Assembly (NCBI RefSeq): GCF_026196735.1
Contig: NZ_JAPHUF010000021.1
Coordinates: 6,744-70,743, forward strand
Direction: 5' to 3'
From: Sulfurimonas sp.
GTDB taxonomy: Bacteria > Campylobacterota > Campylobacteria > Campylobacterales > Sulfurimonadaceae
Length of the DNA stretch: 64,000 bases
The notes under the pieces are model-generated. The model ran no database searches. It had not been told where the DNA came from and saw nothing but the letters and a program-made list of their open reading frames with translations. Positions 1,626-16,218 of the stretch are shown one piece after another. Positions within the stretch are counted from its first letter, which is position 1. Each line of letters opens with the position of its first letter. The translations under genes and the position numbers were made by a program.

Positions 1626-2729
1626 ATGAAGAGATTTTTTGCACTGCTTATCGGCATTGTACTAACCCTTAGTGCAACACAACACCAAAATCTTCCTAAT
1701 GATGAAAAACTCAAAAAGATGATTGGAAGAATGCTTCTTGTCGGATTTCCAAATGAAGACATAGACAAAAACAGTGAGATAACAAGACACATAAAACAGT
1801 ATGAGCTTGGCGGTGTCATCCTTTTTGACCGTTTTTATGATGACAGAAGTAAAACAAAAAATATAAGCTCACCAAAACAACTTCAACTTTTAACTTCAAA
1901 ACTAAAATCATTCTCCAACAAAGCACTTTTAATATCCATAGACCAAGAGGGTGGAAAAGTTGCAAGACTAAAGCCCTCCTATGGTTTTGCTGAAATTCCA
2001 TCGGCAAAGCAGATTTCCACTCTACATGTAGATAAGGCAAAAGAGATATACAAGACTCAAGCGCAGATGCTTCAAAGTGCTGGAATCAACTGTGATTTTG
2101 CACCTGTAGTTGACCTGGCTGTTAACCCTGATAACAAAGTTATCTATGGGCTTGAACGCTCATATGGAAACAACTCCAAAGAAGTAGTCAAATACGCAAA
2201 AATATTTATGGACTCACTAAAAGATAAAAATATTATCAGTGTACTGAAGCACTTTCCCGGACACGGCTCATCACTTGGAGATTCTCATAAAGGTTTTGTA
2301 GATATAAGCAACACTTGGAGCGAAGCTGAACTTCAACCGTACAAAGAGCTTATAAAATCTGGCGAAGTTTCCATGATAATGACAGCACATGTCTTTAACT
2401 CAAAACTAGATAAAAAATATCCGGCAACACTCTCATACAATGTAAACACAAAGCTTTTACGAAATGAGCTAAACTACAAAGGCGTAGTTATCAGTGATGA
2501 CTTACAGATGAAAGCCATCTCGCAACACTACACATTGGAGCAGACAGTTACTCTGGCTATAAACTCAGGAGTTGACATGTTGCTTTTTGGAAATCAGCTC
2601 TCAGAGCAAAACATAGATGAACTTGTAGATGTTATTATTAAACAGGTTAAAAACGGTGCAATTTCTATGAGTAGAATCATCGAGTCAAACAAAAGATTAG
2701 AACTACTGCATAAAAAAAGACAAATATAA
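1626..2729 (+). CDS. nagZ: GH3 beta-N-acetylglucosaminidase (NagZ-like), with N-terminal signal peptide
   Basis: DQEGGKVARL, KHFPGHG..GDSH (Asp-His dyad) and SDDLQM motifs; hydrophobic N-terminus. Confidence 0.85.
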   Translation: MKRFFALLIGIVLTLSATQHQNLPNDEKLKKMIGRMLLVGFPNEDIDKNSEITRHIKQYELGGVILFDRFYDDRSKTKNISSPKQLQLLTSKLKSFSNKALLISIDQEGGKVARLKPSYGFAEIPSAKQISTLHVDKAKEIYKTQAQMLQSAGINCDFAPVVDLAVNPDNKVIYGLERSYGNNSKEVVKYAKIFMDSLKDKNIISVLKHFPGHGSSLGDSHKGFVDISNTWSEAELQPYKELIKSGEVSMIMTAHVFNSKLDKKYPATLSYNVNTKLLRNELNYKGVVISDDLQMKAISQHYTLEQTVTLAINSGVDMLLFGNQLSEQNIDELVDVIIKQVKNGAISMSRIIESNKRLELLHKKRQI

Positions 2730-2731
2730 TC

Positions 2732-4213
2732 ATGCAGAGTGCCTTTTCAAATCTTGACTGGTTAGTATTTGGCTCTTACTTTGTTATACTCGCATTCACA
2801 TCTTTTATACTAAGTCGCGTTAAAATCACAAATTCAAGAGACTATTTTCTTGGCTCAAATACTATGCCTATGTTTGCCGTTGCAATTTCAGTTCTTGCAA
2901 CAAGTCAATCTGCCGCTACATTTTTAGGCGCCCCTGAATTTTCATATGTTCATGACTTTACATTTATAGGCTTTTATTTCTCAGCTTTGCTTGCTGTAAT
3001 TTTTGTAGCCTATGTACTGATTCCGAAATTTTATGAGATGAAAGCCGTTACAGTCTATGAACTGCTAGAGGTTAGGTATGGAGAGAGTGCTAAAAAGCAG
3101 GCTGGTATCATGTTTCTTGTAGGTCGTGTTTTGGCTAGTGGAGCACGACTTTATATCGGAGCACTTGCTATAAGCATGATACTCTTTGGCAATATTATAT
3201 TTGTACATGTAGCTGTCTCGATTTTGATTTTAATGTTTGGAGCACTTGCTTATACATACTTTGGCGGTGTTCGCTCAGTAATTTTGAGTGATGTCATCCA
3301 AGCGCTTACTTACATTGGCGCAGGTGTTGCGGTTTTGGTTTTTCTTTACTACTCTTTAGAGAATATCGACATTATAAGCAAGCTCCAAGAGCATAACAAA
3401 CTAAAGTTTGTAGATACATCCATAGACGGTAAATTTAGTCTTGTAGGTCTTTTAAGCGGTTGGTTGCTTTTAAACATCGCAGCCTTTGGACTAGACCAAG
3501 ATATGACCCAAAGAGTTCTCTCATGTAAGAACAAAAATGAAGCTGCAAAGTCACTGATAATCTCTATACTTCTGACTATTCCCTTTGTTCTTCTATTTTT
3601 AGCTATCGGCGCACTTTTGTTTGTCTTTTATCTGCAAAGTGATGTGACTCAGAGTTTTGAGGGTGAAAAAATTACTATCTTTATGTACTACATCCTAAAC
3701 GAGATGCCCGAGGGCCTGCGAGGTCTAGTGACCGTTGGAGCAATTGCCGCAGCACTCTCAAGTACAAACTCAGTATTGGGCGCTATGGCATCTGTAGCAG
3801 TTGAAGATATATACAGACCATGGAGATTAAAACGCACAGATACTGATGAGATGCACTTTGTAAAAGCTTCAAGAGTTGCGGTTCTTTTATTTGCCGTTGT
3901 TTTATCTCTTATGGCGATGCTCAGTTACTTCTGGCAACGCTACAGTGACCTCTCTCTTATCAGTTTTGCTCTGGGTGTAATGGCTTTTGCATATACCGGT
4001 CTTTTAGGCGTTTACTTCTCTGCCATCTTTACATCTCGCGGAAACAAAACGACTGTTCTTTTTGCATTGATTGGCGGATTTATGACTGTTTTGGCGCTTC
4101 AGCCATACACTTTTGGTATCAGCATCGGCTTTTCATGGCAGATAGTCATTGGAACTTTTGTTTCATTTTTTATAATGCAGCTCAAAAAAACAGACACAAA
4201 AATAAGTTTATAG
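2732..4213 (+). CDS. Sodium:solute symporter (SSS family)
   Basis: 493 aa multi-TM; YFLG, SAATFLG, YTYFGGVRSVILSDVIQ, DQDMTQRVL and AAALSSTNS motifs. Confidence 0.9.
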   Translation: MQSAFSNLDWLVFGSYFVILAFTSFILSRVKITNSRDYFLGSNTMPMFAVAISVLATSQSAATFLGAPEFSYVHDFTFIGFYFSALLAVIFVAYVLIPKFYEMKAVTVYELLEVRYGESAKKQAGIMFLVGRVLASGARLYIGALAISMILFGNIIFVHVAVSILILMFGALAYTYFGGVRSVILSDVIQALTYIGAGVAVLVFLYYSLENIDIISKLQEHNKLKFVDTSIDGKFSLVGLLSGWLLLNIAAFGLDQDMTQRVLSCKNKNEAAKSLIISILLTIPFVLLFLAIGALLFVFYLQSDVTQSFEGEKITIFMYYILNEMPEGLRGLVTVGAIAAALSSTNSVLGAMASVAVEDIYRPWRLKRTDTDEMHFVKASRVAVLLFAVVLSLMAMLSYFWQRYSDLSLISFALGVMAFAYTGLLGVYFSAIFTSRGNKTTVLFALIGGFMTVLALQPYTFGISIGFSWQIVIGTFVSFFIMQLKKTDTKISL

Positions 4214-4230
4214 GCAAATAACAAAAAGAT

Positions 4231-4239
4231 TGCTATAAT
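4231..4239 (+). promoter_or_regulatory. Extended -10 promoter element for the M15 peptidase/anmK genes
   Basis: TGCTATAAT (TGnTATAAT) 33 nt upstream of ATG 4273. Confidence 0.5.
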
Positions 4240-4272: not shown

Positions 4273-5016
4273 ATGACAAGACGAAATTTTTTATTATACT
4301 CATCTGCACTAGCGTTAACCACACTTAATGCCGAGCAATTATATAAAAGTGATGTGTTTTTATCTGCAAACGAATACACAGCCTTACTTTCGCTGGACTA
4401 TAGATTAACTCAGATAAGAAGACATGTAGGATTTGGAAATTTTAATTTGATTTCCTATGGCGACTCTTTACAAATAGCAAAAATGAACCCTAAAATAGGA
4501 GCATTCACAAATGAAGAGATATCACTTATCGATAGATTTTTTTATGATGAGCCAAGCAAATACGGTTTTTACGGCGAAAGAACATGTTACAACTTAGACA
4601 ATAAAATCTCTAAAAAAGATGTTGTTAAAATTCCTCGTACCGGACATTATATATTTAAAGGAAAGCCTACTCAGGACTATGAGAGGATTATTGGTGATAT
4701 CGGACATACTCTCTACCTAACATCAGGTGTAAGAAACACCATTAAACAGCTAAGTCTCTACTGTTCTAAACTAAGAAGAGTAAAAGGAAATATTACTCAA
4801 GCCTCAAAAGACATAGCCCCGCCGTCTCACTCTTTTCATACTATCGGCGATTTTGATGTCGGCAAGATGGGGCTTGGCAGCAGAAACTTTACACTGGATT
4901 TTGCTAAAACATCAGAGTTTGAGCAGATGACAAAACTTGAATATATTAATATCAGATACTCTCCAAACAACTTGGATGGCGTTAGATATGAACCATGGCA
5001 TGTAAAGATTATATGA
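4273..5016 (+). CDS. M15 family D-Ala-D-Ala carboxypeptidase (VanY-like), Tat-like signal
   Basis: MTRRNFL leader; SGVR, SFHTIGDFD and C-terminal EPWH zinc-peptidase motifs. Confidence 0.85.
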   Translation: MTRRNFLLYSSALALTTLNAEQLYKSDVFLSANEYTALLSLDYRLTQIRRHVGFGNFNLISYGDSLQIAKMNPKIGAFTNEEISLIDRFFYDEPSKYGFYGERTCYNLDNKISKKDVVKIPRTGHYIFKGKPTQDYERIIGDIGHTLYLTSGVRNTIKQLSLYCSKLRRVKGNITQASKDIAPPSHSFHTIGDFDVGKMGLGSRNFTLDFAKTSEFEQMTKLEYINIRYSPNNLDGVRYEPWHVKII

Positions 5017-5588
5017 TGAAAAAACTAATATATATAATAGCTATCCTTTTTATATCATCACTCGCTCAAGCAAAGGAAGGTGTTTTAGTCAAGATTTTTG
5101 ATGGAGATACCTTATATTTTAAAACAGAAAATAAAATTGACAAATGTAAAATAGCATACATTGACACTCCGGAAAACAGTTACAACGACAAACTAAAACA
5201 AGAGATTGAAATATGTAAAGATATACCTACTAAGGTTATGTTAAATGCTGGAGATAGTGCGACAAAACATGCTAATAAATTACTAAAAATTGGAAATAAC
5301 TACAGCTATAGCACCTACATTAAAAACAGTGAACAAATTTGTGAGGTTTCGCTCGGTAACGGTATTACATTTAGTGAGAAGATGCTGCTTGATGGGTATG
5401 CTGTAGTGTGGAAGGTTGACAAAAAACAAAAAGAGGAACAAAACTTCAGTAGTATTTTAACCTATGCAAAAAATAAAAATAATGGTCTTTGGGGAGACAA
5501 CTCTCAAAGAGGCGAAGTTATTAAGTGCTTGGAAAAAATAAGTTCTCAAGATAGCAAGACAGATAAATCTAGCTATGAATCAAAGTAA
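5013..5588 (+). CDS. Thermonuclease (SNase) family exported protein, possibly degenerate
   Basis: Signal peptide; DGDT and IDTPE motifs; C-terminal AKNKNNGLW; start placed at ATG 5013, overlapping the upstream stop (ATGA). Confidence 0.75.
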   Translation: MMKKLIYIIAILFISSLAQAKEGVLVKIFDGDTLYFKTENKIDKCKIAYIDTPENSYNDKLKQEIEICKDIPTKVMLNAGDSATKHANKLLKIGNNYSYSTYIKNSEQICEVSLGNGITFSEKMLLDGYAVVWKVDKKQKEEQNFSSILTYAKNKNNGLWGDNSQRGEVIKCLEKISSQDSKTDKSSYESK

Positions 5589-5593
5589 ATCAG

Positions 5594-6679
5594 ATGGATG
5601 AGCTTTACATTGGTGTGATGTCAGGCACAAGCCTTGATGGAGTTGATATAGCTCTATGCAAGATAAATTCCGGCTCTTGTGAGCTTGTGTTTTATGCGGA
5701 ATACCCTTTTGATACAAACTTGAAAAATGATATTTTAACTGCTATAAATGGACCGACTACTCTAAAAACCATAGGTGAACTTGACACTCGTTTAGGCAAA
5801 ATCTATGCCGAGTATATTACTGCTTTTATGCGCCATAACAATTTACAAAAAAAAGATATAAGTGCCATTGGACTACACGGTCAAACACTCTGGCATGAAC
5901 CAGACGGTGAGTTTCCTTTTTCAATGCAGCTTGGAAATGCCAACATTATAACAGCACAAACAGGCATTAGTGTTGTCAGTGATTTTAGACAAAAAGATAT
6001 AGCACTTGGCGGTCAAGGAGCACCTTTTGCGCCTGCCTTTCATAAGCAGATGTTCTCAAAACTAAATCGTAATATTGCAGTTGTTAATATTGGCGGCATC
6101 GCAAATCTTAGCATATTGGGAAATCAACTACTTGGCTACGATACGGGAGCTGGAAATGTTTTAATGGATTTTTGGATATCAAAGAAAAAAGGCCTCACTT
6201 ACGACAAAAATGGAGAGTGGGCAAGGTCCGGTCATGTCAGTGCAGAATTATTGGACACAATGCTCCGTGATCCATACTTCTCGAAAAAAGCTCCAAAAAG
6301 TACCGGTCGTGAATATTTCAACGAAAAATGGATAGAGAAGCAACTAGAAGAGTTTGGATATGTTATAGACAAAGATGTTCAAGCAACACTTCTGGAATTT
6401 ACCGCAGTAACTATCGCAAATGAAGTAAAAAAAAGCTCCGTTGAGCTTCTTTTAGTTTGTGGCGGTGGTGCAAAAAACGGTGCTCTTATGGAAAAGCTTC
6501 GCAGAGAGTTCAAAGATATTGAAGTATCTATCAGCGATTATTATGGTTTAAACGGCGACTTTATGGAAGCTATGGCTTTTGCATGGCTTGCGTATAAACG
6601 GATCAACAAAGAAAAAGTAGAGCTTTCATCGGTTACCGGTGCGAGAGAAAATTCTGTTTTGGGTTGTATATATGAATAA
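5594..6679 (+). CDS. anmK: Anhydro-N-acetylmuramic acid kinase
   Basis: GVMSGTSLDGVD, HGQTLWH, DFRQKDIALGGQGAP, NIGGIAN, DTGAGN and PKSTGRE motifs. Confidence 0.95.
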   Translation: MDELYIGVMSGTSLDGVDIALCKINSGSCELVFYAEYPFDTNLKNDILTAINGPTTLKTIGELDTRLGKIYAEYITAFMRHNNLQKKDISAIGLHGQTLWHEPDGEFPFSMQLGNANIITAQTGISVVSDFRQKDIALGGQGAPFAPAFHKQMFSKLNRNIAVVNIGGIANLSILGNQLLGYDTGAGNVLMDFWISKKKGLTYDKNGEWARSGHVSAELLDTMLRDPYFSKKAPKSTGREYFNEKWIEKQLEEFGYVIDKDVQATLLEFTAVTIANEVKKSSVELLLVCGGGAKNGALMEKLRREFKDIEVSISDYYGLNGDFMEAMAFAWLAYKRINKEKVELSSVTGARENSVLGCIYE

Positions 6680-7610
6680 AATAAAAGAGTGGCTACAAAC
6701 AACAAAATACAAAAATCACTCTTTAGAAATTGCTTCTGCTGATGCAAGTTTTAGAAAATACTACAGACTTACAAGTGGAGATGAAACTGTTTTACTTATG
6801 GACTCATCACTTGAAAAAGAATCTCTCACTTCATTTTTGGATGTGACTCAAAGACTTTTGGATGTACATGTCAATGCTCCTTGTATTTTAGAACAGAACC
6901 TGCAAGACGGCTTTTTGATTATCAAAGATTTTGGAAACACTCACTATCTGGATGTTTTAGACAATCAAAACTATAAGAGCCTTTATTTAAAAGCGATAAA
7001 TACCATTTTAAAGATGCAAAAAGCAGATACTTCAGGCCTTCCAATTTATGATAAAAAATTTCTACATGTAGAGATGGATTTGATGAAAGAGTGGTATTTG
7101 CAAAAGAAGCTAAACCTAACACTAGATGAGTCTCAAAAAGAGCTCATAACAAAGACTCTTGATGCTATATCAACTGTTGTGCTTGAGCAGCCCCAAGATG
7201 TTTTTGTTCACAGAGATTTTCACTCACGCAATATTATGATTGCAAACGAGCATGATATAGGTGTTATAGATTATCAAGATGCAATGAACGGAGCAATCAC
7301 TTACGACTTGGTCTCTTTATTAAAAGATTGCTATGTCGCTTATGACCGCAAAGAGATAAAAAACCTTGCCTTAGCATTTCGTGATAAAATCGATCTACAT
7401 GTAGATGATGAGACATTCTTAAAATGGTTTGATTTTATGGGTATGCAAAGACATATAAAAGTGCTTGGTATTTTTTCTCGTCTATATCTTCGTGATGGCA
7501 AAGATGGTTACTTAAAAGACATACCTCTCACTCTAAAATATGTACTTGATACTGCAAGCAGATATGATGAGACTAAAGAGTTGGCAGAGTTTTTAAAAGC
7601 GAAATGCTAG
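6672..7610 (+). CDS. amgK: Anomeric MurNAc/GlcNAc kinase (AmgK-like phosphotransferase)
   Basis: ADASFRKYYR, HRDFHSRN, DYQDA, YDLVSLLKD and QRHIKVLGIFSRL motifs; start ATG 6672; murU nearby. Confidence 0.85.
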   Translation: MNKIKEWLQTTKYKNHSLEIASADASFRKYYRLTSGDETVLLMDSSLEKESLTSFLDVTQRLLDVHVNAPCILEQNLQDGFLIIKDFGNTHYLDVLDNQNYKSLYLKAINTILKMQKADTSGLPIYDKKFLHVEMDLMKEWYLQKKLNLTLDESQKELITKTLDAISTVVLEQPQDVFVHRDFHSRNIMIANEHDIGVIDYQDAMNGAITYDLVSLLKDCYVAYDRKEIKNLALAFRDKIDLHVDDETFLKWFDFMGMQRHIKVLGIFSRLYLRDGKDGYLKDIPLTLKYVLDTASRYDETKELAEFLKAKC

Positions 7611-8482
7611 AGTATTCATACCCGTTATTTCGTCCGCCGGCAGAAGCTAACAACCTCATCCTACAAGTCACATTAGGTTGCAGCTACAACAACTGCAGCT
7701 TCTGTTCTATGTACAAAACTAAGAATTATGAGGTACGAGAGCTAGAAGATGTGTTCAAGGAGATAGATACTCTCGCGCATCATTACCCAAACGCAACTAA
7801 AATCTTTTTGGCTGACGGTGATGCTCTTTCTTTGCCTTGTGAACAGTTGTTAATATTACTAGATAAACTAAACAGCACATTTACTAAACTGCGAAGAGTA
7901 TCAACTTATGCTTCTACTCAAAATATACTTGGTAAATCAAACAAAGAGCTAGAACTTCTTTGTAAATCCAAACTAAATCTATTTTATTATGGTATCGAGA
8001 CAGGCAGTGATGTTGTGCTAAAGAAGATTACAAAGAGTGTAAATCAAGCAGAGATAATCACCTCACTGACTAAAGCGACTGACGCAGGTGTAAAGATATC
8101 TGCAACGGTCATTTTAGGCATTGGCGGAAGTAAATACTCCGACTTACATGTACAAGAGACTGCCAAAATTATCAATGCTACAAAAGTCAACTATCTCTCA
8201 ACTCTTCAACTAGGAATTGAAGAAGAAGCGAAAGAAAATTTCTACAGATACTTTGATGATTTTACAATGGCAGATGATGAGCAGATACTCTCTGAGCAAA
8301 AAAGGTTTTTAGAACTACTAGAGCCGACTAACAAAATCATTTTTCGCTCTAACCACGCTTCAAATGCTCTTCATCTAGCAGGCACTCTGCCAAAAGACAG
8401 AGACAGACTTGTTCAAGAGCTAAAAATGGCTCTAGATGTCGGAAAATCTGCTTTTGTTCCTAACTACTTTAGAGGATTTTAG
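7604..8482 (+). CDS. Radical SAM protein, function unknown
   Basis: CSYNNCSFC (CxxxCxxC); FRPPAEA and FRSNHASN segments. Confidence 0.85.
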   Translation: MLEYSYPLFRPPAEANNLILQVTLGCSYNNCSFCSMYKTKNYEVRELEDVFKEIDTLAHHYPNATKIFLADGDALSLPCEQLLILLDKLNSTFTKLRRVSTYASTQNILGKSNKELELLCKSKLNLFYYGIETGSDVVLKKITKSVNQAEIITSLTKATDAGVKISATVILGIGGSKYSDLHVQETAKIINATKVNYLSTLQLGIEEEAKENFYRYFDDFTMADDEQILSEQKRFLELLEPTNKIIFRSNHASNALHLAGTLPKDRDRLVQELKMALDVGKSAFVPNYFRGF

Positions 8483-8490
8483 GCAAATTT

Positions 8491-9150
8491 CTACTTTTTA
8501 GAATTCAGCCTTGACTGATACTCTTGTGGATGTTTACACACCGGACAGACTTTTAGCGCTTTTTTGCCATAATGGATATGACCGCAGACTTCGCATATCC
8601 AAGCCTCATTCTCATCTTCACTTACAAACTCTGCTTCTTCTTCGAGTCTATCCAAGAGCATTTTAAACATTTTTTCATGTTCGACTTCTATCTTGCCGAT
8701 TCCGGTAAATAGTTTTTCCGCTTCTTTGTGTCCCTCTTCTTTTGCAATAGCTGCAAACTCAGGATACATCTTCGTGTGTTCATAACGCTCACCGTCAATA
8801 GCTTCTTGAAGATTATATTCAGTATCTCCAAAGCTATCTTCACTCTCGTTTAGCATTCTGTTGTGAAGAGCAAGCTCCATTTTAGCATGTTGTTTTTCAT
8901 TGTCAGCAGCTCTTTGAAAGTGTTCTGCGATATCTCTAAAACCCTCTTTTTGAGCAACTTTAGCAAAGTACTCATACTTGTTTCTCGCTTGTGACTCACC
9001 GGCGAATGCTTTAAGCAGGTTTACCAGAGTCAAGTCATCAGTGACCATTTCCATATCTTGTCCACAACAAGAAAGAGTTCCGCCACCTACAGCTTGTACC
9101 TCAACAGCATTCCCACACTTTTTACATTTATATGATTCGTACTTTCTCAC
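8491..9150 (-). CDS. rrc: Desulforedoxin-rubrerythrin fusion (Rrc-type peroxide defence protein)
   Basis: N-terminal CKKCGN...SCCG, di-iron AFAGESQARNKY/NEKQH/EVEH, C-terminal CEVCG...CPVC. Confidence 0.85.
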   Translation of the reverse strand: MRKYESYKCKKCGNAVEVQAVGGGTLSCCGQDMEMVTDDLTLVNLLKAFAGESQARNKYEYFAKVAQKEGFRDIAEHFQRAADNEKQHAKMELALHNRMLNESEDSFGDTEYNLQEAIDGERYEHTKMYPEFAAIAKEEGHKEAEKLFTGIGKIEVEHEKMFKMLLDRLEEEAEFVSEDENEAWICEVCGHIHYGKKALKVCPVCKHPQEYQSRLNSKK

Positions 9151-9238
9151 AGCTTATCCTTTGATAATAAAATGGTATCTTTTAAAAAGTTTACTCTATT
9201 TAAACTTATTTTACTGTTAGACAAACTTATTTACATTT

Positions 9239-9247
9239 TGTTATAAT
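9239..9247 (+). promoter_or_regulatory. Extended -10 element upstream of murU
   Basis: TGTTATAAT 7 nt before ATG 9255, which would imply a leaderless or near-leaderless mRNA; no clear SD. Confidence 0.45.
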
Positions 9248-9254
9248 CAATCTA

Positions 9255-9914
9255 ATGAAAGCAATGATTTTAGCAGCCGGTCGGGGCGAGAGAATGCGAC
9301 CACTTACAGACCACACTCCAAAGCCATTATTAAAAGTTCACGGCAAGGCTCTTATTGTACATCACATTGAAAAACTCTCTTGTCTTGGATTTGATGAAAT
9401 AGTGATAAACATCGCGCATTTGGGCTATAAAATACCTGAGACTTTAGGTGACGGCTCAAAATGGGGAGTAAACCTAGTCTACTCTGATGAGCAAAATAGC
9501 GGAGCATTAGAGAGTGCCGGCGGAATCATAAAAGCACTTGCATTTTTTGGAAATGACACCTTTTTAGTTGTAAACGGAGATATCTTTTGCGACTATGAAT
9601 TTGATTCTAGTTTTGAGCTTGGCGATAATTTGGCTCATCTTATCTTGGTGCCAAACCCAAAGCACAATCCTGACGGCGACTTTGCTTTAAAAGATGAAAG
9701 AGTTTTAAACAATGGTGAAGAAAAATTCACCTTTTCAGGCATAGGCTATTACTCGCCTAAACTTTTTGAAGGTTTAAGAGCTGAAAAAAGTGCATTGGCT
9801 CCACTTCTTCGCTTGGCAATAGACAAAAGCAGTGTCAGCGGAAATCTACATGTAGGTATCTGGTATGACATCGGAACTCCGCAGAGGCTCGAAGCTGCGA
9901 ACAGATTAAAATAA
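9255..9914 (+). CDS. murU: N-acetylmuramate alpha-1-phosphate uridylyltransferase
   Basis: MILAAGRGERMRPLTDHTPKPLL, LESAGGI, VNGDI, FSGIG and WYDIGTPQRL motifs; 219 aa single domain. Confidence 0.85.
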   Translation: MKAMILAAGRGERMRPLTDHTPKPLLKVHGKALIVHHIEKLSCLGFDEIVINIAHLGYKIPETLGDGSKWGVNLVYSDEQNSGALESAGGIIKALAFFGNDTFLVVNGDIFCDYEFDSSFELGDNLAHLILVPNPKHNPDGDFALKDERVLNNGEEKFTFSGIGYYSPKLFEGLRAEKSALAPLLRLAIDKSSVSGNLHVGIWYDIGTPQRLEAANRLK

Positions 9915-11954: not shown

Positions 11955-12929
11955 GTGTTAAAGTCAATCTTACTAATATCTCTAAGCACTCTGCTTTTTG
12001 CAAAATACACAAACTGCGAATTTAAAAATGAAAACTATACAGAAATATGCCAAAAAGCGGTAAAAAACGGTGTCTCATATAAATATGCCAATGAATTTTT
12101 ACTCTCATATTTTAAGACGAAAAAATTTGATGAGGTAAGTTATAAATATCTTCAACCGAGATTTATCAAAGCTCATAAAAAAAATGAGAAAAAAGCCAAC
12201 AATGTACTTGTCAAATATATACCCGATATGGTAACTCATCTAAAAAAATATAAAGAGGTGTATGATTATGCGGAGAAAAAATACGGTGTAAACCGCGAGA
12301 TAATAGCTGCTATCTTAATAAAAGAGACCAGACTCGGCAAGATAAAACCTACTCATGATGCCTTTATAGTATTTAACACTTTAGTCGTACGAACCAAACC
12401 AAATTCTAGCCGTGAAAAGTGGCTGCTAAATATGGGTAAGACAAATATGACCTCTATCATCGTCCACTGTTATAAAAAGGGGGTAACTCCTGAGCAATGT
12501 AATCTGCCAAGCTCTTATGCAGGAGCTGTAGGGATACCGCAGTTTATGCCAAACAGTTTTGTTTATGCGGAGGGCTATAAAACAGAAGTGGCAGATCTAA
12601 CAAAGATGGAAGATGCCATTGTGTCAGCAAGCAAATTCTTACATAAAAAAGCAAATTTCTCAGTGTTGATTGATTGGAGTATTATGCCTGATATTCCAAG
12701 CATAGAATCTGAGTGGTATGATTATGAGTTCGAAAATGACGACGCTTCATTCGTTTATGCCCAAAGTAAAAAATCAAACAAAGTCTATGATTGTTTTACA
12801 TGTGAAAAACCGGAATTAACATACCTTAGGGAATATAGCAAAAAACTTATGCGTTATAACAACTCATCTAACTATGCTGTGGGCGTAATGCGTCTGGCAT
12901 ACGATGCACATAAAAGTCTCAATAAGTAA
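11955..12929 (+). CDS. Lytic murein transglycosylase (MltB/SLT_2-like)
   Basis: IKETRLG (catalytic Glu), SSYAGAVGIPQFMPNS and YNNSSNYA motifs; signal peptide. Confidence 0.85.
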   Translation: MLKSILLISLSTLLFAKYTNCEFKNENYTEICQKAVKNGVSYKYANEFLLSYFKTKKFDEVSYKYLQPRFIKAHKKNEKKANNVLVKYIPDMVTHLKKYKEVYDYAEKKYGVNREIIAAILIKETRLGKIKPTHDAFIVFNTLVVRTKPNSSREKWLLNMGKTNMTSIIVHCYKKGVTPEQCNLPSSYAGAVGIPQFMPNSFVYAEGYKTEVADLTKMEDAIVSASKFLHKKANFSVLIDWSIMPDIPSIESEWYDYEFENDDASFVYAQSKKSNKVYDCFTCEKPELTYLREYSKKLMRYNNSSNYAVGVMRLAYDAHKSLNK

Positions 12930-13269: not shown

Positions 13270-14133
13270 TTAGTTAATCATGGCTTTTAAAGTGTGTGAT
13301 TCATTTGGTTTAATTATTCTGGCATCATCAAAAGCATTTGCAGATTCTATGCAGACCATACCTTCATAAGAACTAGGTTTCATAGCGCTCATTCTCTTGC
13401 ATTTGTCTACCCATGGATTCCAAACAACTACAGAAGATGAACCTTCATTTTGTATCTTGATTGTTCTATTTTTGTCTATTAGCAATATTTTTCCATAGAC
13501 ATCTTGATAAACTCTATCAATCTCTCTATTAAAAATTATATCTCCGTCTTGTATTTTTTCTTTCATACTCAAAGCATCAAAATACGGCTTTTTATCAAGA
13601 CCTTTTACTCTGACATGTGAAATATGCGAAATATCAAAATAGGTGTGCAGAGCCTGCGTAATAAGAAATGCTTTATCATCAAGATTTGTAGTTTTTAACT
13701 CCACAGTAAGAGTATCTGAAACTATTACATGTAACTCCAGCTCAAATCTATGCGGCCACAGTTTTAAACTCTCAGGTGTGTGAGAAAGTGAAAAAGTAAC
13801 TTCTGTTGAGTTGGCATCTGTCTCATTGGTATTTTTTAGCTTCCACATAGCAGTTCTTGCAAAACCATGCTGAGGCAGGCTTTCATCTTTAGGCATACGC
13901 CCTGAAGGAAGTGCCCTTGGGGTACCAAACCATGGCCAACAAACCGGAATACCACCGCGAATAGACTTCATATGCTCAAAGTCGCTACTCTCGCTAAGCC
14001 ACAAAACAGGGTTGCCGTAATGTCTTTTATACTCAAAAATATGTGCGCCTTGAAGTGCTATCTTGGCTGTCGCTGAAGTGTTTTTTATTTCTATGTACTC
14101 AAAACCGTTAATGAGCTTTTTGTGCTCTATCAC
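13270..14133 (-). CDS. D-hexose-6-phosphate mutarotase (aldose 1-epimerase family)
   Basis: IRGGIPVCWPWFG, HGFAR, ALHTYF and VVWNPW motifs; start moved to GTG 14133, overlapping the upstream TGA. Confidence 0.85.
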   Translation of the reverse strand: MIEHKKLINGFEYIEIKNTSATAKIALQGAHIFEYKRHYGNPVLWLSESSDFEHMKSIRGGIPVCWPWFGTPRALPSGRMPKDESLPQHGFARTAMWKLKNTNETDANSTEVTFSLSHTPESLKLWPHRFELELHVIVSDTLTVELKTTNLDDKAFLITQALHTYFDISHISHVRVKGLDKKPYFDALSMKEKIQDGDIIFNREIDRVYQDVYGKILLIDKNRTIKIQNEGSSSVVVWNPWVDKCKRMSAMKPSSYEGMVCIESANAFDDARIIKPNESHTLKAMIN

Positions 14134-15398
14134 CACTTTTGCCAAACTGTAATTTTGTGCCATTTAAAAGCATAAAAGAGTATAAAGACATAAGAGATTA
14201 TACCTAGTAAGTATGTTGATTGCATATCGCCGCTTACAGATGAGATCTTACCAAAAATAAGAGGCATTATCGCTCCACCTGCAATACCCATAATAAGCAG
14301 AGCGCTCCCTTGTGCTGTATACTTTCCAAGACCTTCCAATGCAAGCGGCCAGATGGTAGGCCACACAAGAGCATTTGCAAAGCCTAAAAGCGCAACAAAG
14401 GTTACGGTATTTGGAAGTGTCGGTATGCCCATCCATCCCCATAATATTTCTGAGATAAAGAAGCTGTCTGCCGATGAAGATACAACACCAATCAAAAACA
14501 AAATCCCAAAAAGAGCAGAGCCTATAAGTGCTTTTTCTTGTGAAAGATACTTAGGTATAAAAGCTACACCGACCAAGTAGCCCGCAACCATAAATACCAT
14601 AGTGTAAGAGGTAAGTGCAGTGGAGTTACCCACACCAAGATACTGTCCATAAAGCCCTATGGTATCTCCGGCTATAACTTCAATACCAACATAAAAGAAA
14701 AGTGCGACAGCACCTAAAACAACGCGAGGAAACTGGAAAATACTATTTTTATCCAAAAGAACTTCTTTTTCAAATTCTAGTTCAGGGAGCGATGAAAACT
14801 TAACAAGAGCTACAAGTCCCGCTAAAACAATAGCCATAATAATATAAGGAGTTATGAGTCTAGATGAGAGAGCCTCTTTTTCAAACGCCGATAGATTTTC
14901 TAAAGAACCAATATCTGAAAGGATAAGAGCTGTAAAAAGAAGAGGCACGATTACTCCTGCACCTTTATTTATAAGTCCCATTATACTTATTCTCATGGCA
15001 GCGCTCTCTATGGGTCCTATACAAACCACATAAGGATTTGATGCGGTTTGAAGTATGGTTAGTCCTGTTCCAAGTGTAAAAAGTGCAAGTAAAAACAGCA
15101 TGAAGCTTGCGCTTATTGCAGCCGGTATAAAAAGAAGACTACCAACAACCATAACAGCCAAACCAAGAGCCATGCCATCTTTGTAGCCTGTTTTCTCCAG
15201 CACATAAGACATTGGCAGCGCCATAACGGTATATGCTATATAAAAAACGAAAGTTACAAAAAGAGCTTGAAAGTCGTTAAGATCACATATAACTTTCAAA
15301 AAAGGTATAAGTGATCCATTTAACCATGTTACAAATCCAAATATAAAGAACAAGATTCCTATAATTACCATAGGTAACATCGTTGTCTTAGTGTCCAT
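14130..15398 (-). CDS. MFS sugar transporter, FucP/GluP (glucose/galactose/GlcNAc) family
   Basis: LFFIFGFVTWLNG, LQTASNPYV, YVGIE and GIAGGA motifs; 12 TM. Confidence 0.9.
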   Translation of the reverse strand: MDTKTTMLPMVIIGILFFIFGFVTWLNGSLIPFLKVICDLNDFQALFVTFVFYIAYTVMALPMSYVLEKTGYKDGMALGLAVMVVGSLLFIPAAISASFMLFLLALFTLGTGLTILQTASNPYVVCIGPIESAAMRISIMGLINKGAGVIVPLLFTALILSDIGSLENLSAFEKEALSSRLITPYIIMAIVLAGLVALVKFSSLPELEFEKEVLLDKNSIFQFPRVVLGAVALFFYVGIEVIAGDTIGLYGQYLGVGNSTALTSYTMVFMVAGYLVGVAFIPKYLSQEKALIGSALFGILFLIGVVSSSADSFFISEILWGWMGIPTLPNTVTFVALLGFANALVWPTIWPLALEGLGKYTAQGSALLIMGIAGGAIMPLIFGKISSVSGDMQSTYLLGIISYVFILFYAFKWHKITVWQKW

Positions 15399-16218
15399 TA
15401 CTTATGCCCTTTAAATATTTCGCAACTGCATCTTCATCGTTAGTATGTGGCAGTATTATATCCGCAGCTTTTTTTACGCTCTCTTGAGCATTTGCAACTG
15501 CAATAGCGTTGCCTGCAAGTTCAAACATTCCTAAATCGTTAAAATTATCACCAAACACACTAAGGTTTGAGAGGTCAAAATCGGCATATTCACTTATGCT
15601 TTTAATCCCGTGAGATTTATCTGCATCTTTATGTAAGACAGTTAAAAAGTAGCAGCCTGCGTAAACTTCCGGTGCTAAAATATACTTCAATATATCTCCA
15701 AAAGTCTTTTTGAAATGCTCAGCAATTTCGCTTAATTGTTTTTGCTCTGCAAAATACACAATTTTAAAGTTTTCATCCATTGTACGAAGATTTTTATGTT
15801 GATGGTGGTGATTGTCATTTTTATAATTTTTAATAATCTCTTTTTGATATGAATTTAAAGTAGTAGAGTATAAAAAAGACTCACTTAAGTCCTTATCAGC
15901 CAAAGAGAGTACAAAAGGGTATATGCCAAATTTTGCACCTTCATCTATGATAGCATCGCCTAGTTCTTTGTTTATAAACTTTGTGTCAATTATCTTCTTA
16001 TCCATAGTTGCTATCAGGGCACCGTCAAGAAGTATCATCGGTGCATTGATATGAATATCTTTTAAAAATTGTGCTGTTTTTTTGTATGTTCTTGCCGTTG
16101 CAACACTTACAATAGAATCAATTCCGACACTGTTCCAAACTTCTCTAGTAAAGGAGCTTACCGATAAATCTGTTCGCAGAAATGTGTGGTCAAGATCTGT
16201 TATATATACTTTTTTCAT
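15388..16218 (-). CDS. Cof-type HAD hydrolase (sugar phosphatase family)
   Basis: DLDHT motif I, ATAR motif II, K..G and FGDNFND motif IV. Confidence 0.85.
   Translation of the reverse strand: MKKVYITDLDHTFLRTDLSVSSFTREVWNSVGIDSIVSVATARTYKKTAQFLKDIHINAPMILLDGALIATMDKKIIDTKFINKELGDAIIDEGAKFGIYPFVLSLADKDLSESFLYSTTLNSYQKEIIKNYKNDNHHHQHKNLRTMDENFKIVYFAEQKQLSEIAEHFKKTFGDILKYILAPEVYAGCYFLTVLHKDADKSHGIKSISEYADFDLSNLSVFGDNFNDLGMFELAGNAIAVANAQESVKKAADIILPHTNDEDAVAKYLKGISNGH

Follow-up and report, generated by a model that had tools for sequence, protein, structure and literature searches.

How does 1,6-anhydro-N-acetylmuramic acid (anhMurNAc) reach its kinase, AnmK, in a Gram-negative bacterium that lacks AmpG? 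This question is raised by a peptidoglycan-recycling cluster in a 64,000-nucleotide stretch of Sulfurimonas sp. DNA (contig NZ_JAPHUF010000021.1, positions 6,744 to 70,743 of the forward strand), which was analyzed at its full length and is called the window here. The sole transporter gene within the cluster (2732 to 4213, plus strand) encodes a 493-residue member of the sodium:solute symporter (SSS) family, P0002. Models of Gram-negative peptidoglycan recycling rest on AmpG, and a 2026 study, which held that a transporter of free anhMurNAc has to exist, explicitly called such a dedicated importer unidentified (PMC13436218). A sequence-only reading of the window had proposed that wall fragments are cleaved in the periplasm and that P0002 imports the resulting monosaccharide for AnmK and AmgK. 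We conclude that P0002 is probably a Na+-coupled inner-membrane symporter for free anhMurNAc, possibly also for N-acetylmuramic acid (MurNAc), and that the SSS clade to which it belongs offers a concrete candidate for the inner-membrane crossing of anhMurNAc. We infer the substrate, stoichiometry, and transport direction.

The genes of the cluster lie on the plus strand in the order frr, pyrE, nagZ, the SSS gene, an M15 peptidase gene, a staphylococcal-nuclease-like (SNase-like) gene, anmK, an amgK-like gene, and a radical-SAM gene. Next come a minus-strand rubrerythrin gene, murU, NUDIX and GGDEF genes, and a gene for an MltB-like lytic transglycosylase. The SSS open reading frame starts with an ATG at 2732, which is indeed 2 nucleotides after the nagZ stop codon (TAA, 2727 to 2729), as the sequence-only reading had stated. 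The anmK gene lies 1.4 kb downstream of the SSS gene (5594 to 6679, plus strand); its product scored 466 bits against PF03702 and 474 bits against NF007139 (cutoff, 367). The amgK-like gene (6639 to 7610, plus strand) encodes a predicted MurNAc/N-acetylglucosamine (GlcNAc) anomeric kinase with the APH fold (PF01636) and 252 bits against NF045759, below the cutoff of 550. The product of murU (9255 to 9914, plus strand), a MurNAc-alpha-1-phosphate uridylyltransferase, scored 294.8 bits against NF045761, above the cutoff of 250.

Where the substrate of AnmK arises depends on the hydrolases. The nagZ gene (1626 to 2729, plus strand) encodes a GH3 beta-N-acetylglucosaminidase of 367 residues, with 226 bits against PF00933 and 189 bits against NF003740 (cutoff, 207). 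The protein contains KHFPGHGSSLGDSH, the NagZ motif as quoted in PMC13436218. Its N terminus, MKRFFALLIGIVLTLSATQHQ, precedes the start of the GH3 domain at residue 31 and places K and R ahead of a hydrophobic core. The maximal 10-residue Kyte-Doolittle mean was 3.16, compared with just 0.6 to 1.2 by the same measure for AnmK, AmgK, MurU, and PyrE of the window. By this heuristic the N terminus resembles the signal peptide that the sequence-only reading had assigned to NagZ. Among the related loci described below, all upstream hydrolase genes with complete N termini (53/53) passed the heuristic as well. Together, these sequence features strongly indicate that NagZ is exported.

A single Amidase_2 gene was found genome-wide, and the start of its product, MMKIIFFLMSVCISTFA, is also signal-peptide-like. 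In the lineage of the window the NagZ and amidase activities are split, with the amidase gene on another contig. Many other Sulfurimonas loci carry an exported NagZ-Amidase_2 fusion of about 555 residues upstream of the SSS gene (L012:6333-8000, L014:6307-8001, and about 15 other loci). The Amidase_2 gene (220 residues) overlaps by 4 nucleotides a gene for a 378-residue DUF819 membrane protein (L093:1345-3140, which is contig C7:341236-343031 of the same genome). Uptake of the freed stem peptide, or of some other product of the wall, is a possible role for the DUF819 protein.

We then consider what the cytoplasm could process. The genome (2.19 Mb in 25 contigs, 100% complete) gave no match to the AmpG profile TIGR00901 at an E value of 0.001 or below, and this was the outcome of the genome-wide search for ampG that the sequence-only reading had suggested. 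One GH3 gene is present genome-wide, that of the exported NagZ, and the genome-wide profile search detected no GH20. By the heuristic both the sole GH3 enzyme and the sole Amidase_2 enzyme are exported, so that the genome encodes neither a cytoplasmic NagZ nor an AmpD-type amidase. With no AmpG, both hydrolases exported, and no GH20, the substrate of AnmK would arise only outside the cytoplasm and enter as a monosaccharide. These findings support the proposal of periplasmic cleavage followed by monosaccharide import. MurQ was not found in the genome either, and the route after AnmK would therefore be solely anabolic, through a phosphatase, AmgK, and MurU.

The same inventory bears on a different cargo. 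P0002 could import the GlcNAc-anhMurNAc disaccharide or whole anhydro-muropeptides and so be a functional analogue of AmpG. Such a substrate would be sensible at one related locus, L100, where an anmK-murQ-SSS-nagZ operon encodes a NagZ without a signal peptide, and the SSS orthologue there may import the disaccharide. In the Sulfurimonas sp. of the window, however, neither cargo could be converted into a substrate of AnmK after import, because the only GH3 and Amidase_2 enzymes are exported and no GH20 is encoded. Furthermore, the SSS transporters that have been characterized take small substrates; among the solved relatives these are monosaccharides, sialic acid, monocarboxylates, iodide, or vitamins. 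For P0002 we regard this cargo as very unlikely.

If P0002 feeds AnmK, the two genes should travel together, and we examined this in an even sample of 151 Campylobacterales genomes from 69 genera (SSS orthologue at E ≤ 1e-40; AnmK by PF03702). The SSS orthologue and AnmK occurred in an identical set of 8 genomes, in all of which the two genes were on the same strand and 5 nucleotides to 3.6 kb apart. These genomes represent 3 genera in 2 families; Sulfurimonas and Sulfurovum-type lineages were identified by their names. AmpG did not exceed its cutoff in any of the 151 genomes, and the 8 with AnmK gave no match whatever.

Synteny was counted in 80 related loci taken from named genome records, all Campylobacterota. 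AnmK lay downstream on the same strand in 61 of the 80 loci; among the 43 loci flanked by 5 kb or more, it did so in 41. The gap between the SSS and AnmK genes was 30 nucleotides or less in 28. AmgK followed AnmK in 49/80 loci, MurU was found in 46/80, and an MltB-like lytic transglycosylase gene came after murU in 23/80. The gene upstream of the SSS gene always encoded an exported peptidoglycan-fragment hydrolase whose type varied between loci: NagZ (about 365 residues), the NagZ-Amidase_2 fusion (about 555 residues), Amidase_2 (about 237 residues, many with a lipobox-like sequence), or the exo-muramidase NamZ. One complete genome of the same genus (G136:C1:2004928-2006397) has an SSS orthologue with a single in-frame TAG, which may mark a pseudogene or reflect an error in the sequence.

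The association extends beyond Campylobacterota. Using an exhaustive HMMER search with representatives at 50% clustering, we checked the context of ten full-length relatives at 37 to 50% identity. Nine of the ten adjoin AnmK/MurQ, NamZ, or MurK-MurQ, and those that could be named include Planctomycetota and Chlamydiales. Seven, at 37 to 48% identity, lie beside both AnmK and MurQ: six in anmK-murQ operons (anmK-murQ-SSS or SSS-anmK-murQ) with stops and starts that often overlap, and one in divergent orientation beside AnmK, which in turn adjoins MurQ. Another overlaps NamZ and has M15 and S13 peptidase genes nearby. For a further relative, which is encoded on a metagenomic contig (L107:7001-11842) and has its nearest named homologues in Chlamydiales/Simkania, genes for a PIG-L-like deacetylase and then an 803-residue MurK::MurQ fusion lie downstream. 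These contexts, together with the co-occurrence in Campylobacterales, bear out the linkage between this SSS clade and anmK that the sequence-only reading had put forward for checking; in most relatives AnmK is directly adjacent to the SSS gene.

For one relative we sampled 121 genomes of its phylum, which is Planctomycetota according to the names of close homologues. The clade profile separated the SSS proteins of this sample into two score classes, one at 520 bits or above (5 genomes) and the rest at 410 bits or below. All five high-scoring proteins abut AnmK and MurQ. An AmpG-like match was found in none of these 5 genomes, versus 22 of the 66 other AnmK-positive genomes; this distribution is consistent with replacement of AmpG, in a sample too small for statistical meaning. 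A second Planctomycetota subgroup, with Glu at position 58, scored about 290 to 315 bits and shares 29% identity with P0002. Its genes lie beside MurQ in five genomes without AnmK. Three such loci were fetched; MurK is present in L120 and L121, and NamZ is present in L121 and L122. The fullest arrangement, with murQ-murK and namZ in one or two copies beside the Glu58 SSS gene, is that of L121:5258-11279, from a Thalassoglobus-like planctomycete. Such synteny matches that of the murT-murK-murQ locus of Tannerella with namZ and here lies outside Bacteroidota. P0167, a relative that belongs to the more distant Glu58 group, lacks a peptidoglycan context. In a maximum-likelihood tree, all AnmK-linked proteins formed one clade (support, 100/98), the Glu58 proteins branched below it, and the SSS paralogues of the Sulfurimonas genome itself fell far outside. 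P0002 belongs to the AnmK-linked clade, in which position 58 is Ser, Ala, or Thr, and it has AnmK as a neighbor. The two SSS subgroups track the type of kinase, MurK or AnmK.

This division matters for the view that the system mainly scavenges MurNAc or foreign peptidoglycan debris rather than the cell's own wall, with P0002 as a MurNAc importer like MurT of Tannerella. A published account places MurT in the sodium symporter superfamily (PMC5790795), and AmgK takes MurNAc directly. In some Campylobacterota clusters (L044, L054, and L066) an exported NamZ, which frees MurNAc, replaces NagZ upstream, and clade members P0126 and P0147 are paired with NamZ or MurK-MurQ. AnmK, however, would have no role in a pure MurNAc route and yet is the most constant neighbor, and an MltB-like lytic transglycosylase accompanies the cluster. 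The truly MurT-like synteny (MurK-MurQ-NamZ, no AnmK) belongs to the separate Glu58 branch. We therefore judge scavenging of MurNAc to be an unlikely main function.

Does P0002 itself look like a carrier of an acidic sugar? The protein covered the entire SSF profile PF00474 (positions 1 to 406 of 406; 102.4 bits, cutoff 22.8) and scored 163 bits against TIGR00813, below the strict cutoff of 184. It matched SSF only and is not an AmpG family member. Its best solved relative is the Na+/sialic acid symporter SiaT (5NV9), with an end-to-end alignment and E values of 5e-38 for the protein alone and 7.5e-74 when the clade profile was used. Anions or carboxylates are the cargo of all five top-ranking solved structures (SiaT, SMCT1, NIS, and SMVT), and the neutral-sugar SGLTs rank lower. 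We compared residues with those of SiaT as described in PMC5931594. The Na2 site is kept: Ala56, Gln59, Ala340, Ser343, and Ser344 of P0002 correspond to Ala56, Leu59, Ala339, Ser342, and Ser343 of SiaT, in which residue 59 contributes a main-chain ligand. The Na3 ligands are mostly kept as Asp187 and Ser347, with Asn346 replacing Ser345. Since both sets of ligands are conserved, Na+ coupling of P0002 is plausible. Ser60 and Thr63, which in SiaT hold the carboxylate of sialic acid (PMC5931594), are invariant across the clade. Among the substrate ligands, P0002 keeps Ser58, Ser60, and Thr63 and has lost Gln82 and Arg135. No match to nan-type families of sialic acid catabolism was found among the neighbors within 13.5 kb.

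The database entries examined all annotate the clade generically as sodium:solute symporters, and the NCBIfam models for YidK and PanF match P0002 weakly. These points would suit a carrier of some unrelated compound (for instance, an amino acid, a monocarboxylate, or a vitamin) whose gene is in this operon by chance. We rejected both identities, PanF at 83 bits against a cutoff of 328 (TIGR02119) and YidK at 121 against 401 (PRK10484); the subfamily equivalog cutoffs for PanF, PutP, and YidK were not reached. Chance placement would also have to account for synteny with AnmK, MurQ, or NamZ that recurs in at least three phyla, and we consider an unrelated solute extremely unlikely.

A more specific alternative is that P0002 imports GlcNAc for AmgK and that anhMurNAc enters through another carrier, for example, a NagP-like permease of the major facilitator superfamily (MFS) or the DUF819 protein. 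According to the NCBIfam name, GlcNAc is also a substrate of AmgK-type kinases, and it is released by NagZ, whose gene adjoins that of P0002. The overlap of the DUF819 gene with that of the exported amidase also fits, as does the presence of DUF819 in all eight AnmK-positive Campylobacterales. Across phyla, however, the constant partner is AnmK, with or without NagZ or AmgK, and Ser60/Thr63 and the anion-carrying nearest relatives suit an acidic sugar rather than neutral GlcNAc. Moreover, a NagP-like permease, likely a GlcNAc importer and itself a rival candidate for sugar uptake, is already encoded nearby (14130 to 15398, minus strand; NF046060, 500 bits, cutoff 625). Near related clusters it was found in 15/80 loci, solely those labeled Sulfurimonas, Sulfuricurvum, or Helicobacteraceae, and it is absent from Sulfurovum clusters. 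About 18 of the sampled genomes that lack AnmK encode DUF819 as well, and in no case does its gene adjoin that of AnmK; we discarded it as a rival importer for being too widespread among AnmK-less genomes. Import of GlcNAc by P0002 is, in our estimate, improbable.

Position 58, in transmembrane helix 1 (TM1), may hold a clue to specificity among the muramic acid sugars. Proteins of the AnmK-linked clade have Ser, Ala, or Thr here, and those of the group linked to MurK and NamZ have Glu. The homologous residue of SiaT, Thr58, contacts the anomeric hydroxyl (PMC5931594). Since anhMurNAc has no free anomeric hydroxyl, position 58 may be a switch between anhMurNAc and MurNAc specificity.

Several observations weigh against import of anhMurNAc by P0002. 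Signal peptides were called from a hydrophobicity heuristic (the 10-residue Kyte-Doolittle window) and conservation, not by SignalP. The perfect co-occurrence in Campylobacterales spans just 3 genera, whose members are kin and not independent cases. One clade member, P0131, has no peptidoglycan context. The partners of P0126 and P0147 are not AnmK, and for that reason MurNAc may be a cargo of the clade, either alongside anhMurNAc or in its place. In the L100 operon NagZ has no signal peptide, and the orthologue there may carry the disaccharide. Within the binding site, Gln82 and Arg135 of SiaT are Tyr82 and Ala135 in P0002. Invariant arginines 132 and 139 lie in TM3, three residues before and four residues after the position of Arg135, and by helix geometry are probably on the same face as position 135. 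We rejected these arginines with the QD..QR motif as a marker of specificity, as they also occur in relatives without peptidoglycan context, such as P0167.

With anhMurNAc as the cargo of P0002, recycling in this organism could proceed as follows. Lytic transglycosylases such as the MltB-like enzyme encoded in the window (11955 to 12929, plus strand; PF13406 SLT_2, 111 bits), a source of 1,6-anhydro ends, would free GlcNAc-anhMurNAc-peptides into the periplasm. The exported Amidase_2, encoded elsewhere in the genome, would cut off the peptide, and the exported NagZ would cut off GlcNAc. P0002 would then bring in anhMurNAc on the Na+ gradient, and AnmK would trap it as MurNAc-6-phosphate. A phosphatase other than a MupP orthologue would dephosphorylate this product, after which AmgK and then MurU would yield UDP-MurNAc. 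GlcNAc would probably enter through the nearby NagP-like permease.

For the phosphatase step, we found no MupP equivalog in the genome; the best score against NF009696 was 82 bits, compared to a cutoff of 359. A gene for a Cof-type HAD phosphatase is present at 15388 to 16218 on the minus strand (PF08282, 148 bits). Genes of this type stand alongside the cluster in 20/80 related loci, including Sulfurovum loci without neighboring NagP and epimerase genes. As the genome has neither a MupP equivalog nor MurQ, the Cof-type HAD protein is a candidate for a nonorthologous MurNAc-6-phosphate phosphatase.

As a serious possibility that we advance tentatively, P0002 may represent the missing dedicated anhMurNAc importer of Gram-negative bacteria. 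It would then define a widespread AmpG-independent architecture, one that disassembles wall fragments fully in the periplasm and is shared by Campylobacterota and Planctomycetota; relatives from the clade are also found in Chlamydiales. TM1 position 58 may, as part of this proposal, split anhMurNAc carriers (Ser/Ala, with AnmK) from MurNAc carriers (Glu, with MurK and NamZ). If true, this would explain the use of AnmK in AmpG-less Sulfurimonas, Sulfurovum, and some Planctomycetota and would give diderm bacteria a route in which disassembly is periplasmic and sugars enter as monosaccharides. This route would lead into the AmgK-MurU branch, which bypasses MurA and in Pseudomonas is the basis of intrinsic fosfomycin tolerance (PMC5371407). 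A validated function would also correct a large block of annotation that now reads generically as sodium:solute symporter. The sequence-only reading had seen the arrangement as suited to a marine cell, a view that the data do not support: the same gene occurs in metagenome-assembled genomes that, by our reading of their isolate labels, seem to come from nonmarine sources such as mud, creek water, and a cave, as well as in Planctomycetota and Chlamydiales.

The remaining features of the cluster vary between lineages. The M15 (VanY-like) peptidase gene (4273 to 5016, plus strand; PF02557, 38 bits) encodes a predicted Tat-exported protein with the leader MTRRNFLL. The SNase-like gene (4995 to 5588, plus strand; PF00565, 30.8 bits) encodes a predicted exported protein with a signal-peptide-like N terminus. 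Both are insertions between the SSS gene and anmK; the former is present in 2/80 related loci and the latter in 1/80, which marks them as lineage specific. A promoter-like site (4211 to 4239; 10/12 matches, with TG) lies in the 59-nucleotide gap 5' of the M15 peptidase gene. Farther downstream (7604 to 9150), the radical-SAM gene overlaps the end of amgK, and the minus-strand rubrerythrin gene stands between amgK and murU, a position at which it was found in 1/80 related loci. Both look like local insertions into the cluster. The promoter and terminator scan of the window gave counts near the shuffled expectation and no usable operon boundaries; its only notable hit was a strong promoter-like site before murU (9218 to 9247).

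How does the proposed system compare with known ones? Like P0002, AmpG of E. coli and Pseudomonas moves lytic transglycosylase products over the inner membrane for AnmK-dependent recycling. The two proteins are unrelated, AmpG having the MFS fold and P0002 the LeuT fold of SSS proteins. AmpG needs the GlcNAc-anhMurNAc disaccharide and works with cytoplasmic NagZ and AmpD, whereas processing in the P0002 system would be periplasmic and the cargo a monosaccharide. YejBEF-YepA of Agrobacterium is, in the account of PMC9790009, another peptidoglycan-recycling transporter in an AmpG-less Gram-negative bacterium. It is an ATP-binding cassette importer of muropeptides; P0002 is a secondary carrier with a proposed monosaccharide cargo.

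SiaT of Proteus mirabilis (PDB 5NV9/5NVA; PMC5931594) has the same length as P0002 and carries an N-acetylated acidic amino sugar, as proposed for P0002. It differs in that Arg135 and Gln82 are replaced in P0002 and in that the neighbors of P0002 are peptidoglycan-recycling genes, not genes of sialic acid catabolism.

The sequence-only reading had called the arrangement a different recycling architecture. As an architecture, extracytoplasmic cleavage with monosaccharide import is not new; it is already known from B. subtilis, through the phosphotransferase system (PTS) transporter MurP (PMC8054146), and from Tannerella (10.1101/2021.12.02.470905; for MurT, PMC5790795 and PMC7670621). B. subtilis resembles the window system in exporting NagZ and an amidase, in having NamZ (present in some relatives of the window), and in taking up the monosaccharides separately. 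Its uptake is a phosphorylating PTS step and the route is catabolic via MurQ, whereas the window encodes a predicted Na+ symporter, then AnmK, and then AmgK and MurU for an anabolic route that lacks MurQ. MurT (Tanf_08375) of Tannerella forsythia is, as Ruscitto 2016 is cited in PMC5790795 and PMC7670621, a PTS-independent MurNAc transporter encoded in a murT-murK-murQ operon. We compared it by synteny and description only. As proposed for P0002, it is an inner-membrane importer of a free muramic acid monosaccharide; its gene stands beside that of a sugar-trapping kinase, and it is fed by periplasmic exo-hydrolases (NamZ). Its authors considered it a possible anhMurNAc carrier, although Tannerella has no AnmK (PMC7670621). 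The partners of MurT are MurK and MurQ, and those of P0002 are AnmK, AmgK, and MurU; an operon of BadF-type MurK and MurQ is absent from the window and present with Glu58 proteins in L120 and L121 and with clade member P0147. Next to these systems, P0002 would be a sugar-acid symporter of the SSS family that is committed to the AnmK route.

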